NCBI GenBank assembly: GCA_028277605.1 | Contig: JANQFZ010000027.1 | Span: forward strand, 235 to 64,234 | Direction of reading: 5' to 3' | Origin: Vallitaleaceae bacterium | Lineage (GTDB): Bacteria > Bacillota > Clostridia > Lachnospirales > Vallitaleaceae | Length of the DNA stretch: 64,000 nucleotides | In this document: one piece after another, positions 44,329-61,995 of the stretch | How the letters are laid out: every line of letters starts with the position of its first letter | Position numbering within the stretch: position 1 is the stretch's first letter | Notes under the pieces: model-generated | The model's database searches: none | What the model saw: the letters and a program-made list of their open reading frames with translations, nothing else | Told to the model about the DNA's origin: nothing | Position numbers and translations under genes: made by a program

Positions 44329-44331
44329 TAT

Positions 44332-45075
44332 TTAGGACACTTTTTTCTCGGACATTAAATTTCTATATTCAATAGGTGATAAATAGCCTAAAGAACAATG
44401 TATTCTATAATGATTATGCCAGTGTATATAGTCAAATAAATCTGTTTCCAATTCCTCTAAAGTATTAAATATCCTATCAAAAGCAAATTCTGTTTTTATG
44501 ACCTTAAATGTGTCTTCACCTACTGAATTATCATAGGGGCATCCTTTTTTACTTAATGAATGTTAAATATTAAAGGTATATAATAATTCATCTATTGCTC
44601 TATTTTTAAATTCATCACCTCGATCAGTATGGAGAATACTTATCTGGTCTAGTGGTTGATTAATTTTAGAAAATGCTTTTAATACAAGAGTTGTGTCCTT
44701 TCTTGAACCTGCCGAATAGCCAATAATCTCACGATTAAACAGGTCAACTAATAAGCATATATAATGCCATTTACCAATAACATTTACATATGTTAGGTCG
44801 CTTACTATAACTTCCATTTGTGCCCTTTTATTTAATACTCTGTTAACTTTATTTACTATCTTATTCTCATTATACTTTGCACGATGAACCTTAAATTGCT
44901 TTACAGTGTATTGTGATACAAGTCCATATTTTTTCATGACGATACCAATACGTCTTCTAGAGACTTGATACCCTAGTTTAAATAATTCCTGCTTAATTTT
45001 TCTAGTTCCATAATTATTACGACTGACCTTAAATATCAAGAAACAAATTTTATACAACTTTTTCTTTGTGAACAC
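44332..45075 (-). pseudogene. IS3-family OrfB (integrase core) with an in-frame TAA stop; OrfA absent
   Basis: The reading frame continues through TAA at 44563-44565 (..YTFNI*HSLSKKGCPYDNSVGE..). DDE region LHTDRGDEF. Truncated upstream at about 45095. Confidence 0.75.
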
Positions 45076-46625: not shown

Positions 46626-48635
46626 TTAGTATCGATTTAAGTTCGCTACTTGATTAAACAATTTTTCATAGGCTGATTGTTTTCTATAAAAGACTGGAGG
46701 ATAGCCTATGGGGGCTGGTATGGTATGTTCACCGCCCTTATATAAGTGTCCAGTCCAGAAGTGTACCCACTCATCTTCTGGTAAGTATACTGACCATGTA
46801 TTCTTGTTTTGTTCGTAAATCGGTGCTACTAATACTTCGGAACCAAAGAGATACTGATAAGCAATATCATAGGTTTTTGGGTCATTTTCATAATGCATAA
46901 ATAGTGGCCTTTGCATGGGCAACCCTTGGTTGGATGCCTCTTTTATTAAGCGTTCTATATAAGGCTTTAGAGCGATATGTATCTCTACCATTTTAGCTAA
47001 ATGTTTCATGGTTTCATCATCATGATAGTACTGAAAGTTCTGCTCGGGTCGATTGCCTTCATGCGTACGCATAAAGGATGTGAAAACACTCATTTCCGCC
47101 CAGCGTTGAAACAATTCCTTTGTTCGTATATTACCATGTAGACTTGTATAGCCTCCTATATCACTATGATGATATGGATTACCTATGATACCCGATGACA
47201 AAGCTCCTGGTATAACAGAAGCTAACCCATCATGAAGTGAAAAATCAACGGACTGATCGCCTGCCCATAAGGCTGTACAGTACTTTTGAGAACTATACCC
47301 ACCAGCTCGCATAAAGTAGAATATTTCTCCCAGTTTACCAGCTTCTTTGACAGCTTCATAATTACACTGCGCCCACAATACGGGCCATGCATTATGCATA
47401 ATCTTAGCATCTACCCCATTGTATAGGCAACAGTCCGTGGGCAAGTACTCACCGAAATCTGCCATCCATCCATCTAAACCAAAATCAATAAGATTCTTCT
47501 TAATAACTTCTTTATACCAGCCAAAAGCTTCAGGATTCGTTAAATCAACAATACCACAGTCAAATTCCCCAAAATCTACATCATAGTCTTCTCCATCATT
47601 TGTTTTTGCTAAATAATTTCTTTCTTTAGCTTCAGCATATAAAGAGCCATCGTTCACAACAAATGAAGTTAAATACCCCATAAATCGGATACCTTTTTCT
47701 TTTAACTCAAATATAACCTTATCTAAGTCTGGATAACGGTCTGGGTTCCATTCCCAGTTCCATCTTAACCGCTTTCCAAAAGAGGTTCTATTAATACCAA
47801 CCCAATCTTGACACCATAATCCACTCACTTGAATACCTGCTTGCTTGGCATCTTCTAAATAACCCAGAACCTTTTCGGTTCCTCCTTGAACCCCCAGCAT
47901 AACACCATCTCTGATCCAGCTTGGTAATTCTGGTAATCTACCGATATACTCTGTTAGTTTCTTTGTTAACTCTATATAGCTGCTTGCTGATTCAACAATT
48001 ACAGTTTGTGGTATATCCCAAGTTTGTAGCTCGTGAAAATCAGGATGTCTAAAGTCAAAATCAGCATAAGCTGTAGACTCTACGTGACACCAGTACTTTC
48101 TTGTTGAGATAAAAGTAGGTTCTGGATAGTTCGTTGTATAGTAGTCTCCACCCGCTCTATCTCTTGTATCTGCCAGCCAAGTGGTATAGGTGGTTTTGTC
48201 TCGTCCAACACCAGGTTCTGATGTCCACAAGGGGAAATGACGTCCACGTAGATTAAAGTAAGACATCTGCTCACCACATCCATACACCTTCTCATCCTTC
48301 TCAGCAAAAAATCTTAGCCACAAACGATTAATTTTTTTGTTTTTTTGTATAAAATCTATCAATAATCGTTCGTTTTCCTCTCTAACTTTCATAACAATTA
48401 AGGATTGTTCATCTGCTCCATGCAGCTTAAATTTAATACTATTCTCTTCTACACTAGCATAGGTTAATGGAAGGCGTTCAATAAGATAGTCTTCAATCTT
48501 GTAGTTCCCTCGATACATATCAATGCTTTCTTCCCCATATCCAATATATAGAGCTGGCTGCTCCACCGTATGACATAGTATTAACTTATCTTGTAAATAC
48601 AATGAAAAGCCTTGATCCAGTTCCACTATTTTCAT
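46626..48635 (-). CDS. yihQ: GH31 glycosidase, YihQ-type sulfoquinovosidase
   Basis: 669 aa. Long collinear similarity (from memory) to E. coli YihQ: YGCGEQ.SYF.LRG..FPLWTSE.GVGR, QDW.GI.RTSFGKRLRWNW, GWMADFGEYLPTD, WAGDQ, HHSDIGGYT. It is the last gene of the operon. Confidence 0.8.
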   Translation of the reverse strand: MKIVELDQGFSLYLQDKLILCHTVEQPALYIGYGEESIDMYRGNYKIEDYLIERLPLTYASVEENSIKFKLHGADEQSLIVMKVREENERLLIDFIQKNKKINRLWLRFFAEKDEKVYGCGEQMSYFNLRGRHFPLWTSEPGVGRDKTTYTTWLADTRDRAGGDYYTTNYPEPTFISTRKYWCHVESTAYADFDFRHPDFHELQTWDIPQTVIVESASSYIELTKKLTEYIGRLPELPSWIRDGVMLGVQGGTEKVLGYLEDAKQAGIQVSGLWCQDWVGINRTSFGKRLRWNWEWNPDRYPDLDKVIFELKEKGIRFMGYLTSFVVNDGSLYAEAKERNYLAKTNDGEDYDVDFGEFDCGIVDLTNPEAFGWYKEVIKKNLIDFGLDGWMADFGEYLPTDCCLYNGVDAKIMHNAWPVLWAQCNYEAVKEAGKLGEIFYFMRAGGYSSQKYCTALWAGDQSVDFSLHDGLASVIPGALSSGIIGNPYHHSDIGGYTSLHGNIRTKELFQRWAEMSVFTSFMRTHEGNRPEQNFQYYHDDETMKHLAKMVEIHIALKPYIERLIKEASNQGLPMQRPLFMHYENDPKTYDIAYQYLFGSEVLVAPIYEQNKNTWSVYLPEDEWVHFWTGHLYKGGEHTIPAPIGYPPVFYRKQSAYEKLFNQVANLNRY

Positions 48636-48670
48636 TATTTCACCTCTTATTCATGTCATTCTTATGATAA

Positions 48671-49486
48671 TTAACCTTTTACAGCCCCTGCTGACATACC
48701 TGCTATGAAATACCGTTGGAAAAACAGATACATCAATACCATAGGAATTGAGGCTATAGCAACACCTGTGAAAAGCATTTGATAGTCAATAACATACTGT
48801 CCTTGAAAATCTAGTAATGCCAAAGGAACTGTTTTTTTAGCCCTTTTTGTAATAAATAATAAAGGATATAATAAATCATTCCAATGCATAACAAACAAAA
48901 ATATGCCTGTTGCTGATAATGAAGGTAATGAAAGCGGCATAACAACTCTTGAATAGATCTTCCATTCATTTGCCCCATCTACTTTAGAAGCACCGAACAA
49001 TTCCTTGTGAATCGACCGCATAAAGCCTGTTAAAATAAAAACTGCCACTGGTAATGTAGATGCAATATTAGCAATAATTAAGCCTGTTAATTTATTTTTA
49101 AGACCAAAAGAAGATATCAGATTATATAGCGGTATCATATTTACTTGAGGAGGAATCATCATACCTGCTGCAAACAAAGCAAAAATAATAATTCCTAGAA
49201 TTTTATTGCATCGAATAATAAAATAAGCAGCTAAACTTCCAAAAAATAGAGTTAGAAAAACAGAGGTTAACGTGGTTTGAATACTGTTTAGAAAATAAAC
49301 AACAAACTTTTCTTCTACAAATATTTTATAGTAGTTATCAAGAGAAAAGTTTCTAGGGAGTCCAGCAATATTCTGAAATAACTCTGTACCATCTTTGAAG
49401 GTAGCAAAGAAAATGATAGATAGAGGTAATAGAATAGCCAGTGCGTATAAGCATAATACAATATTTCTTATAATTTTTTTATTCAT
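48671..49486 (-). CDS. CUT1 sugar ABC transporter permease
   Basis: 271 aa, 6 TM, with EAA-like loop HKELFGASKVDGANEW. Confidence 0.85.
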   Translation of the reverse strand: MNKKIIRNIVLCLYALAILLPLSIIFFATFKDGTELFQNIAGLPRNFSLDNYYKIFVEEKFVVYFLNSIQTTLTSVFLTLFFGSLAAYFIIRCNKILGIIIFALFAAGMMIPPQVNMIPLYNLISSFGLKNKLTGLIIANIASTLPVAVFILTGFMRSIHKELFGASKVDGANEWKIYSRVVMPLSLPSLSATGIFLFVMHWNDLLYPLLFITKRAKKTVPLALLDFQGQYVIDYQMLFTGVAIASIPMVLMYLFFQRYFIAGMSAGAVKG

Positions 49487-49498
49487 CTCATTTCCTCC

Positions 49499-50371
49499 CT
49501 AATTTGTTTCATATCTGTCAACCAGCTTAAATTGTAAAAATGTGATTGCGCCAATAATAACTAAAAAGATGATTGATTGTGCGGCTGCATAACCAAATTT
49601 GTTGCTTCTGAAGGCAACATTATAGATATTGGTAGCAATGATTTCTGTCGAGTAATTTGGACCCCCACGAGTCATAGTATAGATAAGATCAAAGGCTTTG
49701 AAGGTTTGAATCGTCGTGTAAGCAACAACAATGGTAGCCGCTGGTGCTATCATAGGCCATGTTACCCTTCTAAATGTTTGCAAAGCACTTGCCCCTTCTA
49801 TCTTTGCTACCTCGTAAAACTGCTTAGGAATGGCTTGCAAGCCTGCAACAAAGATAACAATCATCTGCCCGACATGAAACCATGCTTTAACAACTGCAAT
49901 GGAGTAAATAGCAATGGACTTATCTCCTAACCAGTCTTGTATCATCCATTCTAATCCAAGTGATTTTAACAATTGGTCAATAGGTCCAATATTAGGTGCA
50001 TATAAAAAAGTCCAAATGAAACCTACAGATACAGATGCTAATATAGTTGGGAAAAAATACAAGGCTCTAAAAAACACGTTGCTTTTAGTATTCTTTATTA
50101 ATAATAATGCTAAACCTAAGGAAAATAAAAATTGTAGTATAGAAGCAGATAACGTAAATTTTACGTTATTAGTTAATGACTTGATAAATATCGTATCATT
50201 GGTGAACAAATTAATGAAGTTTTTTAATCCTACAAAATTAAATGCAGGAGAAACCCCATCCCAATCAGTAATAGAATAAAAAAGAGATAATACGGTAGGA
50301 TATACATAAAATACACCATATATCAATAGGGCAGGTATAATGAAAAACCCTATTTTTTTGCTTGCCCTCAT
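49499..50371 (-). CDS. CUT1 sugar ABC transporter permease
   Basis: 290 aa, 6 TM, with EAA-like loop IPKQFYEVAKIEGASAL. Confidence 0.85.
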   Translation of the reverse strand: MRASKKIGFFIIPALLIYGVFYVYPTVLSLFYSITDWDGVSPAFNFVGLKNFINLFTNDTIFIKSLTNNVKFTLSASILQFLFSLGLALLLIKNTKSNVFFRALYFFPTILASVSVGFIWTFLYAPNIGPIDQLLKSLGLEWMIQDWLGDKSIAIYSIAVVKAWFHVGQMIVIFVAGLQAIPKQFYEVAKIEGASALQTFRRVTWPMIAPAATIVVAYTTIQTFKAFDLIYTMTRGGPNYSTEIIATNIYNVAFRSNKFGYAAAQSIIFLVIIGAITFLQFKLVDRYETN

Positions 50372-50632
50372 TAAGCCTCACTCCTTGAATGTAGAATATA
50401 GTGCAGGATCAAAATAATATAGACTTGATATAACGAAGAGAATTTCATCCTTTATGAAATTCTCTTCCTTATTAAATTCTGTATAGGTAGAACTAAATAA
50501 TTAGTAGACCCATTATTTAGAACCCTTCAACCTATAAGCTCAAAACATATAATGAACTTATCAATTGGTAATCATGTAAATAAAAGTTCATTATATACAG
50601 GTAACTATCTACGTATAACTATTTACTTATAA

Positions 50633-51955
50633 CTATCTACTTAATATTTCATCAATTAATTTTTGAGCATTGTCAGCAGCTTTTTGTGGTTCAGTACCGC
50701 TGATAACATCTTGAATAGAACCTAAAACAGCATTCTGAACATCTTGATCCGTGATAAAGAAACGAGGCTGTGTTCGTGTTTTTCTTGGTCCCCAAACTTC
50801 TCCAATTTCCATTAGTTCTTTAGACGTATATTCGACATCTTTCAAAGTAAGCTGTTGTCCTGTTGTGTTAGCATAATAGCTAGCTATTTCTTTCTCTGTT
50901 AAGAAATCAATAAACATAGCAGCTTCTTCTTTATGATTGGATTTCTTATTAATTCCCAATAAGAACGTTGCGTTATGAATACCATCCCAAACCTTTTCAC
51001 CTTCTGAAGCGGGGTTTGGAGAAATGATACCTAATTCTAAATCTGGATTCTTTGCTAGGATACCAGAGATAGCATAGGAACCTGTTGCAAGCATAGCTGC
51101 TTCTTCACTAGCTATCATATTAATACCATCTTGATGCTTGAGTGAGTTAGCACTGGTGTTAAAGTAACCCTTGCTGTTTAACTCATTGAAGTGAGCGAGA
51201 GTTTTAACCCACCAATCTTCGGTTATTTTTGCTTCACCACTTAAGACTCTTGCCCAAATGCCTTCATCGGGCTCTAGGTTCATCATCATACTATTCATAA
51301 ACTGACCTGGTCCAATATCTCCACCAGGGAATGCAATTGGTACATAGCCAGCATCCTTTAATTTTTGACAGGCATCTAACCAGCTATCCCAATCTTTCAT
51401 AGCTCCTTCAAAATCAACCCCAGCTTTTTCAAAGGCTTTTTTATTGTAAACTGGCTGATTATAAACCATTTGGAAAGGCACAGCGTATTGAACGCCGTCT
51501 TCTAGACCAGCTGTAATCAATGCTTCATTAAACTTAGATACAAAGCTTTGGTTGGTGATATCATCAAATAAATCACCTTTACGAATGGTTTGGAATTGAG
51601 CTCCTGGGAAGGATGTGAAGACATCGCCTGCTTCACCATCTTGAAGTAAAGTATGTGCAGTTGATACATATTGTTCGGATGTATAAATGGTTTGTTCTAC
51701 ATCAATATGAGGATATTTTTCATTAAATCTTGAAATAATTTCATCAAATGCATCTTTGTCTTCTCCACGCCAATGAACAAAGCTTAGAGTTACTTTCTTT
51801 TTGTTCTGATCTTGGTTTTGATTATCTTGGTTATTATCCTTGTCGTTATTATCAGTTACATTGGTATTTTCTGAAGTATCCGCCTTTTTCCCACATGCTG
51901 CTAATACAGGAATAACAAGCATTACAGCAAGTAATAACGCTAAAACTTTTTTCAT
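50633..51955 (-). CDS. Extracellular sugar-binding lipoprotein (candidate sulfoquinovose / SQ-glycerol binding)
   Basis: 440 aa with a lipobox LAAC and an N/D/Q-rich linker, belonging to the family-1 SBPs. Confidence 0.75.
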   Translation of the reverse strand: MKKVLALLLAVMLVIPVLAACGKKADTSENTNVTDNNDKDNNQDNQNQDQNKKKVTLSFVHWRGEDKDAFDEIISRFNEKYPHIDVEQTIYTSEQYVSTAHTLLQDGEAGDVFTSFPGAQFQTIRKGDLFDDITNQSFVSKFNEALITAGLEDGVQYAVPFQMVYNQPVYNKKAFEKAGVDFEGAMKDWDSWLDACQKLKDAGYVPIAFPGGDIGPGQFMNSMMMNLEPDEGIWARVLSGEAKITEDWWVKTLAHFNELNSKGYFNTSANSLKHQDGINMIASEEAAMLATGSYAISGILAKNPDLELGIISPNPASEGEKVWDGIHNATFLLGINKKSNHKEEAAMFIDFLTEKEIASYYANTTGQQLTLKDVEYTSKELMEIGEVWGPRKTRTQPRFFITDQDVQNAVLGSIQDVISGTEPQKAADNAQKLIDEILSR

Positions 51956-52051
51956 GAATATCTCCTCCTTAAATTTATCATAAATGTCCTAAGACATTTT
52001 TTACAAAAACTTTATGAGATTTAATCATTACTAAGTCAAGAAATACATGAA

Positions 52052-52723
52052 CTAAGCAATAGAAATAGTTGTATTACTACCAACAATTCCAATGTGCGCT
52101 TGTTGATGAATCATCCTTAAGTTCTCTGGATGTACTAAAAGCCATTTATTTCTCTTAAACAAGCGATAATCTTCTTCGCATTTTCTTAGAAAATCTTTGC
52201 TAATCTCACAATTGGTACCTCTAGGCAATACAATAATACTCTTAAATCCCTCCTCGCATACTTTACATGGTGCTAAGTGTAAAGTTGTTGAATAGATTTC
52301 TACTGCTGTTCCTCTAGGAATAAAAACGCCTTTAATAAGCTCTGATGAATATTGGTTGTTCTTAATATCCCAGACATGACCTAATAAAAGAACCAAATCT
52401 GTAATAGCAATAAGTATTTCACTTGATTTATGATGCTCTAACCCATTAAGACTTGAATTCCGACCATTGCAAAAACCAATCTGAACTTCCATACCCCCAT
52501 AGAATCTTTGCATTAATGCTTTATGTACATGAGTCTTTTCCATTTCTTCAATAGATGACTCATAGACAGTACCCTGCTCTGGAATATTGGTCTTATTAAC
52601 CATATAGCTTATTATCTCTTCAAAATCATATCCACTAACAACATTGACATATGAAGCTGTCTCAGGTTGTTCGACATGAAATATCTCCACATGTGGATTA
52701 TTTTTCTTTATAGTTTTATACAT
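52052..52723 (-). CDS. DUF4867-like cupin protein (candidate sulfoquinovose isomerase)
   Basis: 223 aa, beta-rich and cupin-like. It is the first gene of the importer/GH31 operon. Confidence 0.55.
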   Translation of the reverse strand: MYKTIKKNNPHVEIFHVEQPETASYVNVVSGYDFEEIISYMVNKTNIPEQGTVYESSIEEMEKTHVHKALMQRFYGGMEVQIGFCNGRNSSLNGLEHHKSSEILIAITDLVLLLGHVWDIKNNQYSSELIKGVFIPRGTAVEIYSTTLHLAPCKVCEEGFKSIIVLPRGTNCEISKDFLRKCEEDYRLFKRNKWLLVHPENLRMIHQQAHIGIVGSNTTISIA

Positions 52724-52872
52724 CCTGTTACACCACCATTACTCATTTTAAAACTTAAGTTATCTAAACTTCTGAACAAGCAAAACAACTCTTAAAATTA
52801 AGGGATTAAAAGATTAAACATGGATAATTGACACTAAATTAAGCCGCTTTATGATCTCATCACTAAGCTTAA

Positions 52873-52894
52873 TTAATTAATCCTTTTAATTATT
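52873..52894. promoter_or_regulatory. Candidate operator (22-nt motif TTAATTAATCCTTTTAATTATT)
   Basis: Exact 22-nt repeat of 61974-61995. Lies upstream of the DUF4867 operon. Confidence 0.45.
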
Positions 52895-52960
52895 AACCAT
52901 AGTTATATTCTACAACTAACCATCTCAAATGTCAATATCCATTTAATGTTTTATTTATTT

Positions 52961-52979
52961 ATTAAAAGGATTAACTAAT
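52961..52979. promoter_or_regulatory. Candidate operator, inverted copy (ATTAAAAGGATTAACTAAT)
   Basis: Its reverse complement contains TTAATCCTTTTAAT, the core of the 22-nt motif. Confidence 0.35.
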
Positions 52980-53046
52980 ATAGTTCGTCATTATGCCCAA
53001 AACCATTACTTTAATTCGCTTGTTATTTGAAAAAATAGGCGCACCT

Positions 53047-53102
53047 CACCTATTATCTTCTGTGGTAAGTGTACACCTATTTATGTAGTATCCATTAAGT
53101 AT
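53047..53102 (-). terminator. Rho-independent terminator after the rpiB-like gene
   Basis: The minus-strand RNA pairs AAAUAGGUGUAC with GUGCGCCUAUUU (12 bp including 2 G-U pairs, plus an inner 6-bp stem), followed by U6. Confidence 0.55.
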
Positions 53103-53111
53103 TCATAAAGC

Positions 53112-53585
53112 TTATTTAAAATTCTCTTCTTCTATTCTTTGAACCTCTTTAAAGGCTTGAGATAAGAAATCGTGTTTATGCTCTAAGCCTTCTGTAAATC
53201 CTGTATTCAACCATCTTTCTACCATATCGATGGCTTTTTGGGGAGCAATAATCCAGCCTCCCATTGTTAGAACATTTGCCTGATTAACAACTGAACACAT
53301 TTTTGATGAATAGCTGCCTTCTACAACCGCTGCATAAACTCCTTTAAACTTATTTGCCAATATGTTCATACCCATGCCCGTTCCACAAAACAGCATCCCT
53401 TTTTCATATTCTCCTGAAGCAACCCTTTTGGCTACTTTTGGTGCAACTTCATAATATGCCTTAAAATCGTTAATATCTAAGAGTCCTACATCTTCCACTT
53501 CGTATCCAATTTCTAACAAATACTCTTTAACCGCTTCCTTTAAGGTAAATCCTGATTTATCGGAACCCAGAATTATTTTCTTCAT
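53112..53585 (-). CDS. RpiB/LacA/LacB-family sugar(-phosphate) isomerase (candidate 4-deoxy-4-sulfoerythrose isomerase)
   Basis: 157 aa with the catalytic-Cys loop FCGTGMGM and NVLTMGG. Confidence 0.7.
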   Translation of the reverse strand: MKKIILGSDKSGFTLKEAVKEYLLEIGYEVEDVGLLDINDFKAYYEVAPKVAKRVASGEYEKGMLFCGTGMGMNILANKFKGVYAAVVEGSYSSKMCSVVNQANVLTMGGWIIAPQKAIDMVERWLNTGFTEGLEHKHDFLSQAFKEVQRIEEENFK

Positions 53586-53617
53586 AGTATAACCCTTCCT
53601 CTCCTGTCAGATTAACT

Positions 53618-54562
53618 TTAGCCTTTTTTACCAATGACTTCTTTAACCGCTTCTATAATATGTTTGGCTTTCATCTCATATTTGTTCATTAAGAAATCCA
53701 TTTTACCTACTTCACCAAAATGATCCTTCACACCAATCCTCTTCATTGGTACAGGATAATTCTCGGTTAGCACTTCAGCAACAGCACTACCAAGACCATT
53801 AATAATATTATGATTCTCAGCAGTTACCACAGCACCTGTATCCTTGGCGGCTTGTATAACCGCCTCTTTATCTAATGGCTTAACCGTATGAATATTAAGA
53901 ACCTTAACCGATATACCCTCTTCTTTTAGTTGGTTAGCAGCATCTAATGATTCTTTTACCATTAACCCAGTAGCCATAATCACCACATCACTGCCTTCTT
54001 TTAACTGCTCTGCCTTGCACCAGTTAAAGGTATACTTCTCATCAAAAATCTGCTCTGTTTTCTTTCTGAACATTCTTATATAAACCGGTCCATAATGATT
54101 AATGATGTGAGGCATTGCTTGTTTTAACTGAACACTATCCACAGGTTCAAATATAACCATATTAGGAATAGAGCGCATGATACCCACATCTTCAAAGCTC
54201 ATATGTGTACCACCATTTAGTTCAGCAGCTACACCTGGGTCACTGCCCATCATCTTAACGTTCAAACCTGCATAAGCAACAGAAATGGTGATTTGATCCA
54301 AACACCTTCGGGTAGCAAAAGGTGTAAAAGTATGGGTAAAAGGTATTTTACCAAATGCAGATAGTCCAGAAGCAACTCCCATCATGTTAGCTTCAGCAAT
54401 CCCTACATCTATCGTTCTTTCAGGGAATTTCTCTTTGAAGGGGAGCGACTTTGCTGCTTTCATTAAATCAGCTTCTACTAAAACAATACGCTCATCTTTT
54501 TCTGCCATTTCTATTAATGCTTCAGTATACACTTCTCTAACTTCTCTTTGTTCTAATGCCAT
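53618..54562 (-). CDS. Transketolase, C-terminal (pyrimidine-binding) subunit
   Basis: 314 aa. Split-transketolase B subunit (DVGIAEANMMG, FEPVD), adjacent to the A subunit. Confidence 0.85.
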   Translation of the reverse strand: MALEQREVREVYTEALIEMAEKDERIVLVEADLMKAAKSLPFKEKFPERTIDVGIAEANMMGVASGLSAFGKIPFTHTFTPFATRRCLDQITISVAYAGLNVKMMGSDPGVAAELNGGTHMSFEDVGIMRSIPNMVIFEPVDSVQLKQAMPHIINHYGPVYIRMFRKKTEQIFDEKYTFNWCKAEQLKEGSDVVIMATGLMVKESLDAANQLKEEGISVKVLNIHTVKPLDKEAVIQAAKDTGAVVTAENHNIINGLGSAVAEVLTENYPVPMKRIGVKDHFGEVGKMDFLMNKYEMKAKHIIEAVKEVIGKKG

Positions 54563-54563
54563 A

Positions 54564-55412
54564 CTAAATCACCTCTCCTTCATCAAGCATGGCGACAGCT
54601 TTTTTCCACATCTCTTCTGTAACAGGCATATTATGAGAGCCAACTAAGCCTTCAGCAAAATACGCACCTTTTCCTTTAATGGTATTGAGTATAATCATAG
54701 ATGGACGACCTTTTTCATCATCTGCTCTTTCAATACTATCTAATATTTGTTGGATATCATGACCGTCAATCACCTGCACATGCCAGCCAAACGCTTTCCA
54801 TTTTAAATCCAAAGGCTCCAAACCATTAACCTCTTGGGTATAGCCATCAATCTGCATCTTGTTGTAATCGACAAAAGCAATCACATTGTCTAGTTGCTGA
54901 CTACCAGCAAGCATAGCAGCCTCCCATATCTGTCCTTCTTGACTTTCTCCATCTCCAATTAAAGTAAATATTCTACAGGGGTTTTTATCTATTTTTGCCC
55001 CTAATGCCATACCTATAGCAGCTGAAAACCCTTGTGCAAGTGAACCTGCTGTCATATCTACTCCAGGTGTTAAGATTTTATCACAATGACTTGGGAGGTT
55101 CGTATTAGAACGATTTAAAGTATCTAAAAGCTGAATATCAAAATAACCTCTATGTGCCAGCGCAGCGTAAAGAGCTGGTCCACCATGTCCTTTAGATAGG
55201 ATAAACCTATCTCTTTCCTGCCAGTCTTTATTACTTGGATCGATTTTCATGACATCAAAATAAAGAGCAGATAACACATCACAAATAGATAAACAGCCGC
55301 CAATATGACCAACGCCTAATTTTCCTATCATTTCAATGGTTGATTTTCTTAGTTCCACAGCCTTAGCTTCAAGCTGTTGGATGCGTTCTTTTTGATTCGT
55401 TATTTCCGCCAT
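54564..55412 (-). CDS. Transketolase, N-terminal (ThDP-binding) subunit
   Basis: 282 aa with GHIGG, SKGHGGPA, and the ThDP motif GDGESQEG..N. Confidence 0.85.
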   Translation of the reverse strand: MAEITNQKERIQQLEAKAVELRKSTIEMIGKLGVGHIGGCLSICDVLSALYFDVMKIDPSNKDWQERDRFILSKGHGGPALYAALAHRGYFDIQLLDTLNRSNTNLPSHCDKILTPGVDMTAGSLAQGFSAAIGMALGAKIDKNPCRIFTLIGDGESQEGQIWEAAMLAGSQQLDNVIAFVDYNKMQIDGYTQEVNGLEPLDLKWKAFGWHVQVIDGHDIQQILDSIERADDEKGRPSMIILNTIKGKGAYFAEGLVGSHNMPVTEEMWKKAVAMLDEGEVI

Positions 55413-55498
55413 GATATAACCACCTTTCTTATTTTTGTTATGTAAATTTTGTGTAAAAAGTATATCACATACTCAGTGTTTTAAGCTATTCACACTCT

Positions 55499-56953
55499 TT
55501 AGTAAATATGGGTTAGGATTCCTATAACATAAATGGTTGCAGCTATTATAACCGATGAGATTACCGTTAATACAGCACCTGCTTTTGCCATATCCTTGAT
55601 AGAAAAATAGCCTGCTGAATAAGGAATGACATTTGTAGGTGTGGATGTAACTAATATGAAAGCTAAAGACGAGGTTAACGCTGCTGGCAATGTAATGGAT
55701 AGAGGATCCAACCCTAAGCTTTGAGCCAGTGCAATAATAATTGGTATAATGATAGTTGCTGTAACTGTATTACTTGAAAAAGCTATTTTTAATAAGGAAA
55801 CAATAAACACAATAGCAAATATCTGTATGAATGGATGTATACCGCCTATCTGACCTAAAAGCACTACAGAAAGCCACATAGCAGCCCCTGAGTTATAGAG
55901 CATCATGCCAAGGGATATACCTGAAACCACTAAGATAATACCACTCCAAGAAATATCTGGTTCAATTTCTTTCCATTTAATTTTTGATACACCAGGAAAG
56001 AAAAATAGGGAAGATGTTAATAAAACAGGCATTGAAATTGGGATCCCGATGCCTAACCATCTTTCAAAAAGAGGTGACGTCAGCCATAAAGCTACCGTTA
56101 ATAAAAATATAACAACGGTCTTTTTTTCTTCCAAGTTCATCTTTGGAAGCTTCAAATACTCTTCTCTTAATTGTTCTTTTGTTTTAGATAGTTTTTTCAT
56201 TTCTGGCTTGAAAAATAATAATAAAATCCCCCATGTTGGAAGCAGCAATAAAAGAGCTGAGGGTACTCCAAAGATCATCCAGTCTAGGAAATTAAGATTA
56301 ACTCCTGCCATATCCTTTAAAAATCCAATAGCCAAAGGATTAGGTCCACATCCAGCAGGCGTTCCTATACCACCAACGATAGGTCCCCATGCACATGCAA
56401 TCATCAGCGCCTTTCCAAAGTTGCTTTTTAATGGAACTACTTTTTCTTCTTCTAAGATACTTTTTCCAAGAGGCATCAGCATTGCTGCAACTGCCATATC
56501 TGTTACCCACATAGAAAGTATTGCGCCAACAAGTAAAAATCCTAGTATGATAAAATAAGTATTGTTGCCTGTTTTTGATAGAATAAACATAGAAATGCGC
56601 TTGCCTAATCCCGACCGTGTAATATAGGCAGATAAAATCAGAACACCTATAAAAAAGACAATGATATCATTACCAAAGCCAGCTTTAACAACAGCCTTAA
56701 AGGAGTCTACATTAAAGAGCGCCATCATAAAAACACCAAGTAAGCCTGTTATATGAAAGGGCAGCGCTTCTGTCATCCATAGAATCAGCGCAAATATGAG
56801 TACAGCCATGGCCGTCTGACCAGCTCTAGTTAAAGTCGCCTCTCCAGCCTGAGCTATAGATTGAGGTATGGATATCGCATTAAATATAAGTGCAATGGCA
56901 AGTGCCAGTAAAATAAAAATGATATTTTTTCTTACATTAACACCTTTTGTCAT
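55499..56953 (-). CDS. DASS/SLC13-family anion permease (candidate organosulfonate exporter)
   Basis: About 484 aa, many TM segments, with two SNT/TPTN-type hairpin-tip motifs (FSSNTVTA, TSTPTNVIP). I prefer the ATG at 56953 (GGAGG 8 nt upstream). Confidence 0.7.
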   Translation of the reverse strand: MTKGVNVRKNIIFILLALAIALIFNAISIPQSIAQAGEATLTRAGQTAMAVLIFALILWMTEALPFHITGLLGVFMMALFNVDSFKAVVKAGFGNDIIVFFIGVLILSAYITRSGLGKRISMFILSKTGNNTYFIILGFLLVGAILSMWVTDMAVAAMLMPLGKSILEEEKVVPLKSNFGKALMIACAWGPIVGGIGTPAGCGPNPLAIGFLKDMAGVNLNFLDWMIFGVPSALLLLLPTWGILLLFFKPEMKKLSKTKEQLREEYLKLPKMNLEEKKTVVIFLLTVALWLTSPLFERWLGIGIPISMPVLLTSSLFFFPGVSKIKWKEIEPDISWSGIILVVSGISLGMMLYNSGAAMWLSVVLLGQIGGIHPFIQIFAIVFIVSLLKIAFSSNTVTATIIIPIIIALAQSLGLDPLSITLPAALTSSLAFILVTSTPTNVIPYSAGYFSIKDMAKAGAVLTVISSVIIAATIYVIGILTHIY

Positions 56954-57845
56954 CAAAGCGTTCCTCCTTAATGCATCTATTTAAAAGCTGTCCAACCAAA
57001 CTAGGTTTCTTAGCTACTAACGCACCTGCTGATTCTAAAGCCTTGATTTTGTCTTCTACAGAACCTTTACCTCCCGATACAATAGCACCTGCATGACCCA
57101 TTCTTTTACCTTTTGGTGCTGTTCTTCCGCCAAGAAAGGCTACTAAAGGCTTTGTAAAGGTGCCATTTTGAATTGCTTCTGCAACTTCTTCTTCCATGGT
57201 TCCCCCTAGTTCACCTATAATGACAACCGCATCGGTTTCTTCGTCCGCTTGATAAAAGGGTAGCATTTCTGCAAATCGTGTACCGGGTACTGGGTCACCC
57301 CCTACTCCAATTAATGTAGAGACACCATACCCTGTCTTTACTACCATAGCTGTTACTTCATTGGTTAAAGAACCGCTTCTAGTCATGATACCAATTCTAC
57401 CTGGCTTATAAACCCGTTTTATCCAATAGGGAAAGAATCCCATCATAGCTTTACCCGGTGATATAACTCCAGATGTATTGCCACCTACGACATAAGCACC
57501 TGCTTTTTTTGCTTCTTGCCTTATCTGTATGGCATCATGTAAGGGTATACCATCCGCAACGGTTACAATTTTCTTAACCCCTGAATCTAATGCTTCCAAA
57601 ACAGCATCCTTTGTAAATCTAGGTGGAACAAATAACATAGATGCATCCACATCATAGGTGTTAACCGCTTGTCTAACCGTATTAAAAACAGGTATGGATT
57701 CCACTTGTTGTCCTGCTTTTCCCGGCGTAACACCAGCAACAATCTGTGTACCCATCTCCTTCATATGCTTCGTCCAATAGCTTCCTTCCTTGCCTGTTAT
57801 CCCTTGAATGAGTACCTTTGTACTCCGCTCAATAAAAATACTCAT
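56937..57845 (-). CDS. ADP-forming acyl-CoA ligase, alpha subunit (SucD-like)
   Basis: 302 aa with CoA-binding GITGKEG and the phosphohistidine loop MGHAGAIV. ATGA overlap with the beta subunit gene. Confidence 0.8.
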   Translation of the reverse strand: MSIFIERSTKVLIQGITGKEGSYWTKHMKEMGTQIVAGVTPGKAGQQVESIPVFNTVRQAVNTYDVDASMLFVPPRFTKDAVLEALDSGVKKIVTVADGIPLHDAIQIRQEAKKAGAYVVGGNTSGVISPGKAMMGFFPYWIKRVYKPGRIGIMTRSGSLTNEVTAMVVKTGYGVSTLIGVGGDPVPGTRFAEMLPFYQADEETDAVVIIGELGGTMEEEVAEAIQNGTFTKPLVAFLGGRTAPKGKRMGHAGAIVSGGKGSVEDKIKALESAGALVAKKPSLVGQLLNRCIKEERFDDKRC

Positions 57846-58969
57846 GATACCATCCCTCCTTGAGCAATTTCAACCGCTCGTTGAACCGCCTCTTCTGTGT
57901 CAAACAAGCATTCTAGACCAGCTTCTTGCAGCAATTCGACTGCTTTTTCTTCATTAGTACCTCTGATACAGGCAACAATGGGTCTATCTGGCTTCAATTT
58001 TGCAATAGCATTCACCACACCTTCTGCCATCACATCTGCTCTAGCAATGGTACCGAATGTCACGATTAATATAACTTTAGATTCATTCTTAAGACATAAG
58101 GACATGGCTTTTTCAGCTTTTCTATAGTTAGGTCCGCCAAATTCTAAGTAATTGGCAACTGTTCCACCTGCATAATGAATGAGATCATAGACCGTAGTAG
58201 TCAAGCCAGCACCTGCACACATAAGGCTGATATCACCATCAAATTGTATATAAGGAATCCCTTCTAAGGCTGCCTCATATTCAACTTCATTATCATAATA
58301 AGCGCTTGTTTTTTCATAGGTAGTTTGTCTGTAGGATGCATTATCATCAATAATTAGCTTACCATCTCCAGCTACCACATGTCCCTCTTGAGTTATAAAC
58401 AGCGGATTGATTTCTACTAATTCTGCATCATACTTTCTAAAAACTGTATATAATTTCTGCACTATAGGTATCACCTGTTTAGCATAAGGTGTATCTAAAC
58501 CAAGATTGTAAGCAATATTTCTACTATTAAAGCCTTGGATACCTAAATTAATATCGATTGGCTCTTTGATTATTTTCTCAGGCGAAGTCACAGCTAAGGC
58601 TTCAATATCAATTCCCCCTTCTTCACAAGCGATGATAAGGGCTTTGGAATCAACCGGATCCACAGTTACAGATAAATAAAGCTCTTTTTCTATATTGACT
58701 GCACGCTCAACCAATATCTGTTTAACATGATACGCACTATTAAAGATCTCCTCAGCCTTATCTTTTGCTTCATCCAAAGTTTCCACCAACTGTATAAGTC
58801 CTGCTTTACCTCTTCCGCCTTGAAGTACCTGTGATTTGAGTACACATGGTAGACCAACCTGACGAACTGCATCATCTAATTGGGATAGTTCATTGATGAG
58901 ATGTCCCTCAGGAATAGGAATGCCAGCTTCTTTGAACACTTCTTTTGCTTGATATTCAAATAATTTCAT
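57842..58969 (-). CDS. ADP-forming acyl-CoA ligase, beta subunit (SucC-like ATP-grasp)
   Basis: MKLFEYQAKEVFKEAGIPIP N-terminus. I prefer the ATG at 58969 (GGAGGAG RBS) over 59017. Confidence 0.8.
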   Translation of the reverse strand: MKLFEYQAKEVFKEAGIPIPEGHLINELSQLDDAVRQVGLPCVLKSQVLQGGRGKAGLIQLVETLDEAKDKAEEIFNSAYHVKQILVERAVNIEKELYLSVTVDPVDSKALIIACEEGGIDIEALAVTSPEKIIKEPIDINLGIQGFNSRNIAYNLGLDTPYAKQVIPIVQKLYTVFRKYDAELVEINPLFITQEGHVVAGDGKLIIDDNASYRQTTYEKTSAYYDNEVEYEAALEGIPYIQFDGDISLMCAGAGLTTTVYDLIHYAGGTVANYLEFGGPNYRKAEKAMSLCLKNESKVILIVTFGTIARADVMAEGVVNAIAKLKPDRPIVACIRGTNEEKAVELLQEAGLECLFDTEEAVQRAVEIAQGGMVS

Positions 58970-58983
58970 GGGTGATTCTCCTC

Positions 58984-60390
58984 CTATTTTCCATATTGCT
59001 TCCAATACTCTCCCCACATGTCTTCATCTGTGGGCTTAACTGGTGGTATTGGATATGAAACCCAAGTAATATTTAGAAAATGTTTATAATTGATATTTTC
59101 TGTTGTAATATTACCACCCCATGTACCACAACCTAATGTTACAGTTGATGGCATACCATTGAAAAAATTCCCTCCATTAGCTGGTGCTTGTGGCTGTCTC
59201 ACCATAATACGGCTTGTTTTCATCTCCATGGCAAGCTGATGTATATAAGCATCATTAAACGTATGTATACCACAGGAATGACCTGTTCCAGCAACGGTTG
59301 TAAGCTTGATAAGAATATCCAATCCTTCTTCAAACGTTGAATATTTCCATAGGGTTAATACAGGAGATAGTTTTTCTTCAGCAAACGGGTCAGAATCAAC
59401 TGGCAGTTTTCCTTCAACCATGAGCATGGTTGTGTTGTTAGGAATCATTAATCCTGCATCAGTTGCAATCACTTGAGCTGACTTAGCTACAATCTTTGCA
59501 TTTAATGCGATATGACCCTTTTTATTAGGAACCCACATCCATTTTTGCAGACGTGTTTTTTCAGTTGTATCACATAAATAAGCATCCTTTTGCTTAAAGG
59601 TTTCGATAACTTTATCATAAATGCTTTCATGAACAATAATAGAATTTTCTGATGAACAAGAGGTTGCATGATCGAAGATTTTGCTTATAGTTACTTTTTG
59701 AACAGCATCTTCAACATCTGCATCTTCTGCGATGATTTGTACTGAGTTGCCAGGTCCAACACCATAGGCAGGTGTACCGCTAGAGTAAGCCGCTTTAACC
59801 ATGGCATTTCCACCTGTAGCAATGACCAAATCCACTTGATTCATTAAAAGATTCGTCGCTTCTATTGAGGGGATTTCTACAATTTGTATTAAATCCTCAG
59901 GAGCGCCAACCTTCTTCAACCCTTTTCTCATAAAATCTACAGCCAATTTAGAACTTACTTTAGCTTTTGGGTGAGGAGCAAAAATAACGGCATTTCTTCC
60001 TTTTAGTATAGATAAAGCATTACTTGCTGGTGTCGCTGTGGGATTGGTTACGGGTGTTAGAGCACCAACTACCCCAACAGGCTTAGCATACTTAAATATT
60101 TTTTTCTCATCATCCTTCTCAATAAGACCTACAGACTTGACATTCTTAATATCGTTTAAGACCCCCATAACCTTAACTTTGTGTTTGGTAATTTTGTGTT
60201 CTACCAGCCCCATACCTGTTTCTTCAACCGCTTTTTTAGCAAGCTGTTCAATGCTATCATCCTTATAAACCTGCCAGCCTACCGCTAGGCAAACCTCATC
60301 GATTTGCTCCTGTGTGTACCCTTCGATTTGCTTCTGAGCTTTTCTTGCTCTTTGCAATAAATCTTCAATCATTTTTTTGCTTTCTTCCAT
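58984..60390 (-). CDS. CoA-acylating aldehyde dehydrogenase (EutE/PduP-like; candidate sulfoacetaldehyde dehydrogenase)
   Basis: 468 aa of the ALDH superfamily, with catalytic Cys context FDHATSCSSENS. It is the first gene of the operon and has a GGAGG RBS. Confidence 0.75.
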   Translation of the reverse strand: MEESKKMIEDLLQRARKAQKQIEGYTQEQIDEVCLAVGWQVYKDDSIEQLAKKAVEETGMGLVEHKITKHKVKVMGVLNDIKNVKSVGLIEKDDEKKIFKYAKPVGVVGALTPVTNPTATPASNALSILKGRNAVIFAPHPKAKVSSKLAVDFMRKGLKKVGAPEDLIQIVEIPSIEATNLLMNQVDLVIATGGNAMVKAAYSSGTPAYGVGPGNSVQIIAEDADVEDAVQKVTISKIFDHATSCSSENSIIVHESIYDKVIETFKQKDAYLCDTTEKTRLQKWMWVPNKKGHIALNAKIVAKSAQVIATDAGLMIPNNTTMLMVEGKLPVDSDPFAEEKLSPVLTLWKYSTFEEGLDILIKLTTVAGTGHSCGIHTFNDAYIHQLAMEMKTSRIMVRQPQAPANGGNFFNGMPSTVTLGCGTWGGNITTENINYKHFLNITWVSYPIPPVKPTDEDMWGEYWKQYGK

Positions 60391-60553
60391 AAGAACACCT
60401 CCATATGAATTATAAGCTTAATTTATAGCTCAACTCTCCCATGGTATTATCTGAATAGGAATGGGAAAGAGCATAGACGCCATGAATACTTTTACTATTC
60501 TCTAAGTATAAAAGAATAACTAATTCACTATCGTATAAGTTTATTGGTATTTA

Positions 60554-60571
60554 TTAAACTTTTTAATTAAT
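60554..60571. promoter_or_regulatory. Degenerate copy of the candidate operator (TTAAACTTTTTAATTAAT)
   Basis: Matches TTAATCCTTTTAATTATT at 15 of 18 positions. Lies upstream of the aldehyde-dehydrogenase operon. Confidence 0.3.
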
Positions 60572-60593
60572 AGCTTAAAAAAATAATAGCCAA

Positions 60594-61814
60594 TTATGAG
60601 ATAGCTGTTGCACCTGTTTTATAAAATAATTCTTTGACAACTAAGACAATCCCACCAATACAACGTCTATTATCCAAAACACTACTTTCTATTTTATCCA
60701 TAATGTTATCAACGTGCGCCAGTTTATTAATTTCTTGTATGAGCTTATCTAAGTAACTCTTGTTTCTAAAAAAATCACTATATATAATGATCTTATGTGG
60801 ATCATACAATCTTATCATATTCACAATACCTATTCCAAAGTATCTCCATATTTGGTTGACTTTTTTTACAATCTCCACTTCTCCTAGGTCATAACCTTCA
60901 ATAATGCTAGCTGTATTAATTGCCGATTGGTTACCATCAACCAACTTATGTAGAATCGGATAACACTCCTGTGTAAATTCATCTTTAATGGTTTGTTTCA
61001 AAGTTCTGATAGATGCAACCGTCTCAAGGCATCCTCTCTGTCCACATTTACACTCTTTCCCATTCGGTACAATAATCATATGTCCTAATTCTCCAGCATT
61101 ATTATAAGAGCCTTTATATATTTCTTTATTGGTTATAGCTGCCGATCCAATACCAGGTCCATATTTAATAAAAACCATATTCTCTATATTTTTATGAGAA
61201 GTTAACTCCATCTCTGCTAAAGCTAAGGCTCTAACGTTATTCTCAACAACCACTGGTATATTCAATTCCTTTGATAGTATGGACTGAATGTCGACTTCAT
61301 GTTTCCATAAACCATAGGCACGTTTACTAAGACCTTTTTTACTATCTACAATACCTACAATACCAACTCCAATACCTAGAACATCACTTTTGGAGATATT
61401 CAAGTTCCACAGCATAGACATACATATATCTACGATTATTTTCATAATATCTTCAACTGACATGCCATTAATTTCTTTATCCATATATTCTATAATTTCA
61501 TATTTTAAGTTTGAAATACCTATGCTTAGCGAATTGGGTTCAATATTGACACCAATAACATATTTGTAGTCCTTTTTTAATTCTATAAATATTTTCTTTC
61601 TTCCGACTCTCATCGTATCTTCAATTTGACCGCTTTCTCTTATACAGCCATCCTGAATCATTTCGTTAACAAGTATTGTAACTGCGGCAGGTGTTAGTTT
61701 AATCTTTTCAGCAATATCTTTCCTTGACTTTTTCCCTTTTTTTAGCTGATTTAAGATTAAAGTTCTATTATTTATCTTAACATCACTCATGTTGACACCT
61801 GATGTTCTTCTCAT
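60594..61814 (-). CDS. ROK family transcriptional regulator
   Basis: N-terminal wHTH (SRKDIAEKIKLTPAAVTILVNEM) and a ROK domain with zinc motif GHM..CKCGQRGCLE. The start could instead be the ATG at 61790. Confidence 0.8.
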   Translation of the reverse strand: MRRTSGVNMSDVKINNRTLILNQLKKGKKSRKDIAEKIKLTPAAVTILVNEMIQDGCIRESGQIEDTMRVGRKKIFIELKKDYKYVIGVNIEPNSLSIGISNLKYEIIEYMDKEINGMSVEDIMKIIVDICMSMLWNLNISKSDVLGIGVGIVGIVDSKKGLSKRAYGLWKHEVDIQSILSKELNIPVVVENNVRALALAEMELTSHKNIENMVFIKYGPGIGSAAITNKEIYKGSYNNAGELGHMIIVPNGKECKCGQRGCLETVASIRTLKQTIKDEFTQECYPILHKLVDGNQSAINTASIIEGYDLGEVEIVKKVNQIWRYFGIGIVNMIRLYDPHKIIIYSDFFRNKSYLDKLIQEINKLAHVDNIMDKIESSVLDNRRCIGGIVLVVKELFYKTGATAIS

Positions 61815-61973
61815 TTCAGCTCACTCTTTTCTATATTTAACGGTATTAAAAAAATTATATTAATAGCGAAAAATTTTTAACCACGACTGTTTGTTAACAA
61901 CTAAGATTTTAACTATGTTTTATACTATTATCTTATCTATAATATTACACTATATAAGCTATAAAATCAATAT

Positions 61974-61995
61974 TTAATTAATCCTTTTAATTATT
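61974..61995. promoter_or_regulatory. Candidate operator (22-nt motif) upstream of the ROK gene
   Basis: Exact 22-nt match to 52873-52894. Confidence 0.45.

Follow-up and report, generated by a model that had tools for sequence, protein, structure and literature searches.

The locus described here raises the question of whether a gene cluster without the sulfoquinovose (SQ) isomerase gene sqvD can still belong to a working route of SQ breakdown, and where the isomerase would then be encoded. It lies in a stretch of 64,000 nt (below, the window; G+C about 34%) from Vallitaleaceae bacterium (contig JANQFZ010000027.1, positions 235 to 64,234), in which 13 co-oriented minus-strand open reading frames (ORFs) occupy 46.6–61.8 kb. 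The original prediction, made from the letters alone, held them to be a complete SQ island of the transketolase type (sulfo-TK). Profile scans of the island ORFs against Pfam and NCBIfam, the latter read at its curated cut-offs, and a comparison with the syntenic, uncharacterised cluster of Vallitalea pronyensis (L002; CP058649.1, 3758149–3778982) point to a cluster for the catabolism of SQ or SQ glycosides, which would follow the oxidative variant of the sulfo-TK route, with sulfoacetate as its product, sqvD displaced and a ROK-family repressor in control. On the strength of sequence comparison, we put the probability of this reading at roughly 0.8.

Gene content and the predicted pathway

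In the sulfo-TK pathway SqvD (PF02952) converts SQ into sulfofructose, the transketolase SqwGH moves a C2 unit to glyceraldehyde-3-phosphate, SqwI (PF02502) isomerises sulfoerythrose, and SqwGH then gives sulfoacetaldehyde (PMC9594981, PMC12890257, PMC11659671); the isomerase SqvD, PF02952, is required in the canonical route (PMC9594981, PMC11659671). In Clostridium sp. MSTE9 sulfoacetaldehyde is turned into isethionate by the reductase SqwF (Liu et al. 2021, as cited in PMC9594981). In the oxidative variant, as reported for recombinant Acholeplasma enzymes, CoA-acylating SqwD and then ADP-forming SqwKL yield sulfoacetate and ATP (Chu et al. 2023, as cited in PMC12890257 and PMC11659671).

The ORF list places 13 of 13 island ORFs exactly where the original prediction had put them, in three minus-strand units, and their Pfam domains agree with the contents given there. 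The arrangement of one regulator gene and two operons is likewise borne out, the second unit having a strong promoter-like site of its own (52907–52935). The terminator hairpin announced at 53047–53102, after the RpiB-like gene, is real, but its position is 53030–53082, so that the two intervals overlap only in part. The features of the two operons and the regulator gene, with functions as predicted, are the following.

60594–61814, minus strand: ROK-family transcriptional regulator (Pfam ROK and an N-terminal winged helix)
58984–60390, minus strand: SqwD-like CoA-acylating sulfoacetaldehyde dehydrogenase (Pfam Aldedh)
57842–58969, minus strand: SucC-type (beta) subunit of an ADP-forming CoA ligase, SqwKL/SauCD-like (Pfam ATP-grasp_2 and Ligase_CoA)
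56937–57845, minus strand: SucD-type (alpha) CoA ligase subunit (Pfam CoA_binding and Ligase_CoA)
55499–56953, minus strand: DASS-family anion permease (Na_sulph_symp), SauI-like (TIGR00785)
54564–55412, minus strand: SqwG-like transketolase N-terminal subunit (Pfam Transketolase_N, 7.5e-52)
53618–54562, minus strand: SqwH-like transketolase C-terminal subunit (Pfam Transket_pyr and Transketolase_C)
53112–53585, minus strand: SqwI-like RpiB-family isomerase (Pfam LacAB_rpiB)
53030–53082, minus strand: intrinsic terminator, a hairpin with a U-run that closes the first operon (RNA fold -25.5 kcal/mol, z = -3.15)
52907–52935, minus strand: near-consensus promoter TTGACA-17-TAGAAT of the second operon (region 52872–52979 including two flanking palindromes)
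52052–52723, minus strand: DUF4867 cupin protein of the SqvB/SftX family (Pfam DUF4867, 1.3e-69)
50633–51955, minus strand: CUT1-type sugar-binding lipoprotein (Pfam SBP_bac_1 and SBP_bac_8)
49499–50371 and 48671–49486, minus strand: two ATP-binding cassette (ABC) permease genes (Pfam BPD_transp_1)
46626–48635, minus strand: predicted GH31 sulfoquinovosidase of the YihQ/SftG family (NF007746, PDB matches and residues)

The most likely start of the SucC-like gene is the ATG at 58969, not that at 59017, since it is preceded by the ribosome-binding site GGAGGAG and agrees with the N-terminus of the V. pronyensis protein, and that of the DASS gene is the ATG at 56953. The terminator hairpin was identified by folding, having gone uncalled in a simple terminator scan; the terminator scan gave no convincing terminator 3' of the GH31 gene, and an Rfam scan no match inside the island. 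In V. pronyensis the gene order from ROK to GH31 is identical, with orthologues of all 13 window genes at 54–80% identity (74% for the aldehyde dehydrogenase, ALDH, 79% for SucD and 77% for the transketolase N subunit).

That the GH31 protein would act as a YihQ-type sulfoquinovosidase, as originally predicted, is well supported by a full-length match far above the cut-off (1004.9 bits against NF007746, cut-off 553, residues 3–666 covered) and by the retention of six diagnostic residues. NF007746, which the tool names only 'alpha-glucosidase', we take to be a model that includes Escherichia coli YihQ. The end-to-end PDB matches are 8r56 (E = 7e-292) and YihQ 5aed (E = 5e-254), with 6pnr, YihQ 5aeg and Agrobacterium 5ohs, all of them solved sulfoquinovosidases, as further ones. 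Q288, R301, W304, D405, D472 and Y508 of YihQ correspond to Q276, R289, W292, D393, D460 and Y496, six of six being conserved in ungapped blocks at a constant offset of 12, with D393 within GWMADFGE and D460 within WAGDQ. In YihQ, D405 and D472 are the catalytic nucleophile and acid/base, and R301, W304, Y508 and Q288 the residues of sulfonate recognition; Asp405 is named as catalytic in PMC11968277. All four strings quoted in the original prediction (FGKRLRWNW, HHSDIGGYT, WMADFGE and WAGDQ) are present in the translation, and the Arg/Trp/Tyr triad, whose loss had been named beforehand as speaking against such an enzyme, is retained in the YihQ alignment as R289, W292 and Y496.

The genes of the split transketolase, sqwG and sqwH, adjoin that of the RpiB-family SqwI. 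Among named organisms, V. pronyensis has the closest transketolase N subunit (77%), homologues at 63–77% identity being common. SqwI scores below the rpiB equivalog cut-off (TIGR01120, 114.2 vs 138.65 bits) and above that of the wider RpiB/LacA/LacB subfamily (113.2 vs 88.3). Of the RpiB active site, Cys66 and Asp9 are kept, while His10 is replaced by Lys, His99 by Val and GER by GGW, and the C-terminal Arg cluster is lost; all SqwI proteins of the sulfo-TK loci compared carry the same replacements, which would fit a sulfonate rather than a phosphate substrate. The best NCBIfam model of the ALDH is NF047625, acylating sulfoacetaldehyde dehydrogenase SauS (543.9 bits, cut-off 600). This best model, the presence of the SqwD/SqwKL set and the lack of a match to PF00465 (SqwF-type sulfoacetaldehyde reductase) among the island ORFs therefore argue for the oxidative sulfo-TK variant.

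The DASS permease scores 243.5 bits against TIGR00785 (cut-off 198.6), and in about 40 metagenome loci, some with and others without transketolase genes, a DASS gene is linked to homologues of ALDH-SucC-SucD. In the sulfoacetate cluster of Bilophila wadsworthia, SauI, a carrier of the sodium:sulfate symporter family encoded beside SauS/SauCD, is the proposed sulfoacetate importer (PMC10413351). The DASS permease of the island is a probable sulfoacetate carrier, and its acting as an exporter is the best inference. Contigs L151–L168, several of them titled human gut metagenome, carry DASS-ALDH-SucC-SucD without transketolase genes, with DASS proteins 41–43% identical to that of V. pronyensis, and look like Bilophila-type sulfoacetate utilisation clusters.

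Import by an ABC system has already been assumed for sulfo-TK (PMC11659671). The sugar-binding lipoprotein of the island is 76% identical to its V. pronyensis orthologue, its best PDB match is 4zs9 (E = 7.7e-24), and no gene for an ABC ATPase (ABC_tran) lies between 46.6 and 62 kb. The binding-protein gene is separated from the first permease gene by 261 bp with strong inverted repeats at 50435–50467 and 50547–50596 and no U-run; these could form mRNA-stabilising or attenuating hairpins that raise the expression of the binding protein over that of the permeases.

The DUF4867 protein matches a solved Bacillus megaterium protein (PDB 9gyy, E = 4.5e-70) and keeps 33 of 33 invariant columns, including E96, H98, E102 and H149, so that the metal ligands are intact. 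It is 54% identical to the V. pronyensis orthologue, and no closer relative was found among 5.8 billion proteins. A change of its function after the loss of sqvD, considered for this low identity, was rejected, since the invariant residues are kept, the V. pronyensis protein has an equally long branch and a closer relative is lacking.

The route proposed here from homology to characterised enzymes, for a gene content that is seen directly, would run as follows. SQ or sulfoquinovosyl glycerol would be imported by the CUT1 ABC system, made up of the binding protein and two permeases with an ATPase encoded elsewhere, and SQ would be released by the GH31 sulfoquinovosidase. SqvD, from a gene displaced to another locus, would isomerise SQ to 6-deoxy-6-sulfofructose, from which the split transketolase SqwGH would move C1–C2 onto glyceraldehyde-3-phosphate; RpiB-like SqwI would convert 4-deoxy-4-sulfoerythrose to the ketose, and a second SqwGH cleavage would give sulfoacetaldehyde. 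SqwD would oxidise the latter to sulfoacetyl-CoA, the SucCD-like ligase would free sulfoacetate and make ATP, and the DASS permease would export the sulfoacetate. A transketolase-type pathway to a C2 sulfonate, as originally predicted, is well supported by the gene content and the synteny with V. pronyensis. The disposal of that sulfonate stands in so far as genes of the SqwD/SqwKL type are present, but not as something new, the oxidative branch to sulfoacetate having been described already in the accounts given in PMC12890257 and PMC11659671; the chemistry of the pathway is known.

The ROK regulator and a 23-bp palindrome

The ROK domain of the regulator (Pfam ROK, 2.3e-44) covers residues 117–392 and is preceded by HTH_24 at residues 19–59; the protein contains the ROK zinc motif GH...CKCGQRGCLE, present as GHMIIVPNGKECKCGQRGCLE, and shares 72% identity with its V. 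pronyensis counterpart, encoded at the same position in the cluster. With NagC and Mlc, repressors of the ROK family, it shares the N-terminal winged helix, the ROK domain and the zinc motif. It scores far below the equivalog cut-offs of both (NagC 156 vs 650 bits, Mlc 134.5 vs 530) and belongs to a different ROK subfamily.

An exact 14-mer occurs in the window in three copies, each inside an island promoter region, and on extension gives a 23-bp palindrome, ATTAATTAA-N5-TTAATTAAT. When up to three mismatches are allowed, the window holds 5 sites vs 0.06 expected, with 4 of the 5 lying within the three island promoter regions. V. pronyensis has 5 sites, all in the three orthologous gaps (0.02 expected), and L088, a contig from Logan run SRR31444225 whose ROK protein is 53% identical to that of V. 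pronyensis, has 2 sites of perfect symmetry, one before the ROK gene and one before the ALDH gene (0 expected). The sites at the island promoters, with their neighbours, are listed below.

61973–61995, no strand: palindrome AATAATTAAAAGGATTAATTAAA, abutting the ROK promoter (orthologous sites L002 3316–3338 and L088 3440–3462)
61942–61970, minus strand: ROK promoter TTGATT-17-TAATAT, read by eye, with the palindrome just upstream
60549–60571, no strand: palindrome ATTAATTAAAAAGTTTAATAAAT in the ROK-ALDH gap (orthologous sites L002 4674–4696 and L088 4907–4929)
52957–52979 and 52872–52894, no strand: palindromes flanking the second-operon promoter, in the slot of sqvD in V. pronyensis

The promoters and palindromes are shared with V. 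pronyensis in the same three intergenic regions, and the palindromes coincide with the conserved blocks of the intergenic alignments. In the ROK-ALDH gap the palindrome at 60549–60571 is the only strongly conserved block, and before the second operon the promoter and the downstream palindrome are conserved. Because it marks all three island promoter regions and recurs at orthologous positions in two other organisms, the palindrome is the likely operator of the ROK regulator. The fifth copy in the window, with three mismatches, lies at 49073–49095 inside the second permease gene and could be there by chance or as an internal auxiliary site.

We infer that the ROK protein is an autoregulated repressor of the system, its DNA binding and its effector both being predicted: it would bind the palindrome at its own promoter and at those of the sqwD operon, the DUF4867-to-GH31 operon and the displaced sqvD, and would presumably leave the DNA on binding a sulfosugar. 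NagC and Mlc likewise have AT-rich palindromic operators at their own and their target promoters, paired at some of them, and the length of these operators is 23 bp; the predicted effector, a sulfosugar, sets the island protein apart from them. No ROK regulator linked to SQ was found in the SQ literature within the searchable library. The original claim that an ABC importer, a DASS permease and a ROK regulator were not known as characterised for such a system therefore holds for the ROK part, but neither for the DASS permease, which has a counterpart in SauI (PMC10413351), nor for ABC import, which has been assumed before (PMC11659671).

The probably displaced isomerase gene and the rival readings

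In the V. pronyensis cluster sqvD (438 aa, PF02952) lies between sqwI and the DUF4867 gene, whereas the window is without it. A tblastn search with SqvD as the query gave no match at E <= 0.1 in the whole 64-kb window, a Pfam scan showed PF02952 to be absent from the large window ORFs outside the island, all of them unrelated, and the search for an sqvD remnant in the 388-bp gap between the RpiB-like and DUF4867 genes and in the whole window gave noise only. In the intergenic alignment, the gap still shows the promoter and the operator found ahead of sqvD in V. pronyensis. Among the matches listed, the loci of Halanaerobiales, Erysipelotrichaceae, Acholeplasmataceae and Izemoplasmatales have an SqvD-type gene beside the transketolase genes; in the complete Mollicutes loci (L006, L007 and L009) and in L004 a divergent gene of this type adjoins them, whereas the island has none. 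The simplest history is that sqvD was lost from this position in the lineage of the window. The island can accordingly not be called complete, as it had been, with sqvD found neither in its slot nor elsewhere in the 64 kb; for the step from SQ to sulfofructose the original prediction had named no enzyme.

A search with V. pronyensis SqvD found a homologue of 63% identity, P0134, on a 4.4-kb Logan contig (L170) of run SRR20820739. Of the NCBIfam models, it matches at E <= 1e-10 only that of the sulfoquinovose isomerase SftI, with 202 bits vs 213 for V. pronyensis SqvD. Another contig of the same run, L001, is 100% identical to window positions 52050–55697 over 3,648 bp. Upstream of the P0134 gene, operator copies at L170 894–916 and 1030–1052 (0.01 sites expected) flank a TTGACA-17-TATGAT promoter, in the same layout as at the DUF4867 promoter of the window. 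The G+C content of L170 is 32.4% vs 33.7% for the window, and the tetranucleotide correlation is r = 0.76 vs 0.77–0.91 among window chunks. Since two operator copies surround the promoter of this sqvD homologue, which lies on a different contig from that run, the regulon seems to be split and not broken: sqvD has probably been relocated within the genome and kept in the ROK regulon, so that the pathway would be intact even though the island is incomplete. The closest relatives of SqvD, at 64–67% identity, proved to be encoded in transaldolase-type (sulfo-TAL) clusters of other samples.

Just upstream of the sqvD homologue, at L170 2–838, a gene truncated where the contig ends encodes an ATP-dependent phosphofructokinase (PF00365). 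The sulfofructose kinases of sulfo-EMP2 belong to the same family, and the gene may be either a housekeeping pfkA or one for a sulfosugar kinase. In the window itself a gene at 29576–30622 on the plus strand, 16 kb from the island, encodes an aldose 1-epimerase of PF01263, to which the SQ mutarotase YihR also belongs; since no operator copy precedes it, it probably encodes an ordinary mutarotase.

The core ROK-SqwD-SqwKL-DASS-SqwGH-SqwI is found in L003, L088, L094, L121, L124 and L125. In a contig search queried with SqwH, generic split transketolases made up most of the matches listed, and V. pronyensis was not among them. Clusters without sqvD recur. The minimal clusters are those of L088 (3574–14520) and L089 (Logan run SRR31444214), with the genes for ROK, ALDH, SucC, SucD, DASS, the N- and C-terminal transketolase subunits, RpiB and GH31 followed by unrelated ones; in these two no gene for SqvD, DUF4867 or an ABC importer was detected, and DASS is the only transporter seen. 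The JGI metagenome contigs L121, L124 and L125 have ROK-ALDH-SucCD-DASS, both transketolase subunits and a divergent RpiB (37% identity), flanked by genes of GFO/IDH/MocA oxidoreductases and not by GH31, and no SqvD was detected in them. These oxidoreductases we take to be possible NAD-dependent sulfoquinovosidases. As replacement isomerases, the other ORFs of the SqvD-less loci were considered (GFO/IDH/MocA, a xylose-isomerase-like TIM barrel, TRAP, MatE and several without a Pfam match), and none was an obvious candidate.

Such loci bear on the reading that the island is self-sufficient, with SQ isomerised by the RpiB-like SqwI, acting on C6 and C4 sulfosugars, or by the DUF4867 cupin, and SqvD dispensable, which we regard as doubtful. 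It draws on the recurrence of clusters with the same core and no SqvD (L088/L089, L121, L124 and L125), but these are partial contigs, and sqvD may lie elsewhere in those genomes. SqwI is remodelled at the phosphate-binding and ring-opening positions, and the RpiB/LacAB enzymes include hexose-6-phosphate isomerases (E. coli RpiB on allose-6-phosphate; LacAB), which also counts in favour of self-sufficiency. The SqwI motifs are, however, identical in clusters with and without SqvD, a motif comparison having found no residues that separate the two groups. DUF4867 is a family without an assigned function (PMC11968277) and its metal site is intact, but the DUF4867 proteins tested showed neither mutarotase activity towards SQ or sulfofructose nor activity as sulfofructose kinases, and ligand binding was not detected, SQ isomerisation lying outside these tests (PMC11968277). 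The operator-bearing sqvD homologue in the same run speaks for an isomerase that is still required and under common control. It is unlikely that SqwI-type RpiB homologues isomerise SQ in addition to 4-deoxy-4-sulfoerythrose and make SqvD dispensable; were it so, the recurrence of SqvD-less clusters (L088/L089, L121, L124 and L125) and the tolerance of this lineage to the removal of sqvD from the operon would be explained, and SqwI would gain a defined, broader role.

That the cluster is instead a decaying remnant, in which the pathway went out of use once sqvD was lost and the other genes now drift, is very improbable. The gene is gone from its ancestral position without a remnant, transposase fragments lie 1.5–2.7 kb beyond the GH31 gene and the DUF4867 protein shares just 54% identity with its V. 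pronyensis counterpart, yet 13 of 13 ORFs are full-length at 54–80% identity to their V. pronyensis orthologues, the catalytic and substrate-recognition residues of GH31, SqwI and DUF4867 are intact and the promoters and operators are conserved, while the equally long branch of the V. pronyensis DUF4867 makes the low identity a property of the gene and not of this genome. Equally remote is the reading in which ALDH, SucCD and DASS run reductively, taking up and activating sulfoacetate for the use of a C2 sulfonate and not for SQ breakdown. The homologous SauS-SauCD-SauI works so in B. wadsworthia (PMC10413351), and human-gut contig loci carry DASS-ALDH-SucCD without transketolase genes; in the window, by contrast, the module apparently forms one operon with SqwGH and SqwI, beside the sulfoquinovosidase operon with the same operator, and neither among the island ORFs nor among the other window ORFs covered by the family scans was an isethionate sulfolyase, Xsc or sulfoacetaldehyde reductase found.

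Several points weigh against the preferred reading of an oxidative sulfo-TK cluster with displaced sqvD. The ALDH scores below the SauS cut-off (544 vs 600 bits), and the SucC-like subunit does not reach those of the succinyl-CoA ligase models (NCBIfam sucCoAbeta, 342 vs 375 bits), the SucD-like subunit being above the cut-off on one model (351 vs 336) and below it on the other (344 vs 353); since SqwD and the SucC-like subunit fall below curated cut-offs, the substrate assignments rest on gene context. The activity of SqwI has never been directly measured, even in model systems (PMC9594981). No solved sulfoquinovosyl-glycerol binder is named among the PDB matches of the binding protein at E <= 0.001. 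Export by the DASS carrier is an assumption, its Bilophila homologue SauI being a proposed importer (PMC10413351). Finally, L170 and the window are placed in one genome on account of the shared run, the compatible composition and the shared operator; composition does not discriminate whether L170 belongs to the genome of the window, and SRR20820739 could be a metagenome with two related organisms.

Related systems and the rest of the window

The oxidative sulfo-TK system of Acholeplasma, as far as it is described in the sources that cite it, agrees with the island in the split transketolase, the RpiB-type isomerase, the CoA-acylating ALDH and the SucCD-type ADP-forming ligase, as well as in the genes for a GH31 sulfoquinovosidase, DUF4867 and an ABC importer, and no SqwF reductase figures in that description. 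Loci of Acholeplasmataceae and Izemoplasmatales (L006, L007 and L009) encode homologues of island proteins at 49–74% identity. In L006 and L007, and in the Erysipelotrichaceae locus L005, a MatC/CitMHS permease is found where the island has the DASS permease. None of the three Mollicutes loci (L006, L007 and L009) has a ROK gene, and L005 gives a weak partial ROK-like match (28%).

With the reductive sulfo-TK system of Clostridium sp. MSTE9 the island shares the YihQ-type glycosidase, SqvB (DUF4867), SqwGH and SqwI (Liu et al. 2021, as cited in PMC9594981). In the account given there, SqwF as reductase and SqwE as exporter conclude that system, which yields isethionate, whereas the island has neither of the two and encodes SqwD, SqwKL and DASS instead; sulfoacetate is therefore its predicted product. 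B. wadsworthia has a homologous acylating dehydrogenase, ADP-forming sulfoacetate-CoA ligase and carrier in SauS, SauCD and SauI (PMC10413351). Its module is reductive and feeds an isethionate sulfolyase, whereas that of the island, beside transketolase and sulfoquinovosidase genes, is predicted to be oxidative with export.

The cluster offers a Clostridia-type example of the sulfoacetate-forming transketolase route. What is new in it is a predicted ROK-family repressor with a defined 23-bp operator, and a conserved core of six genes, ROK-SqwD-SqwKL-DASS-SqwGH-SqwI, with the isomerase, DUF4867, the importer and the glycosidase as variable additions. It is also an example of how cluster-based calls can misscore a pathway as complete or incomplete when a gene has moved yet stays in the regulon.

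The V. pronyensis cluster is flanked by tRNA synthetase genes and an AraC-family gene, and that of the window by birA, a DUF6145 gene and insertion sequence (IS) fragments. Beyond the GH31 gene, at 43885–45075 and 45244–45933, lie transposase fragments (rve and HTH_21, 170 aa; DDE_Tnp_2-like, 147 aa) and, beside them, a 229-aa plus-strand ORF without a family match. The transposase fragments and the flanks unlike those of V. pronyensis suggest that the cluster moved or that the region was rearranged.

Elsewhere in the window, a second CUT1-type sugar ABC system (408–5184, minus strand) comprises a binding protein, two permeases and a LacI-family regulator with no ATPase gene, next to an Opp-type peptide transporter (5444–11605). 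A match to group II intron domains D1–D4 (RF02001, 152 bits) lies at 90–261 on the minus strand, and seven tRNA genes (Leu, Lys, Gln, His, Arg, Gly and Pro) at 13519–14241, also on the minus strand. A WYL-domain regulator (HTH_11, WYL and WCX) is encoded at 36795–37706 on the plus strand, and a predicted AAA-ATPase fused to a PD-(D/E)XK nuclease domain at 39450–41204 on the minus strand.

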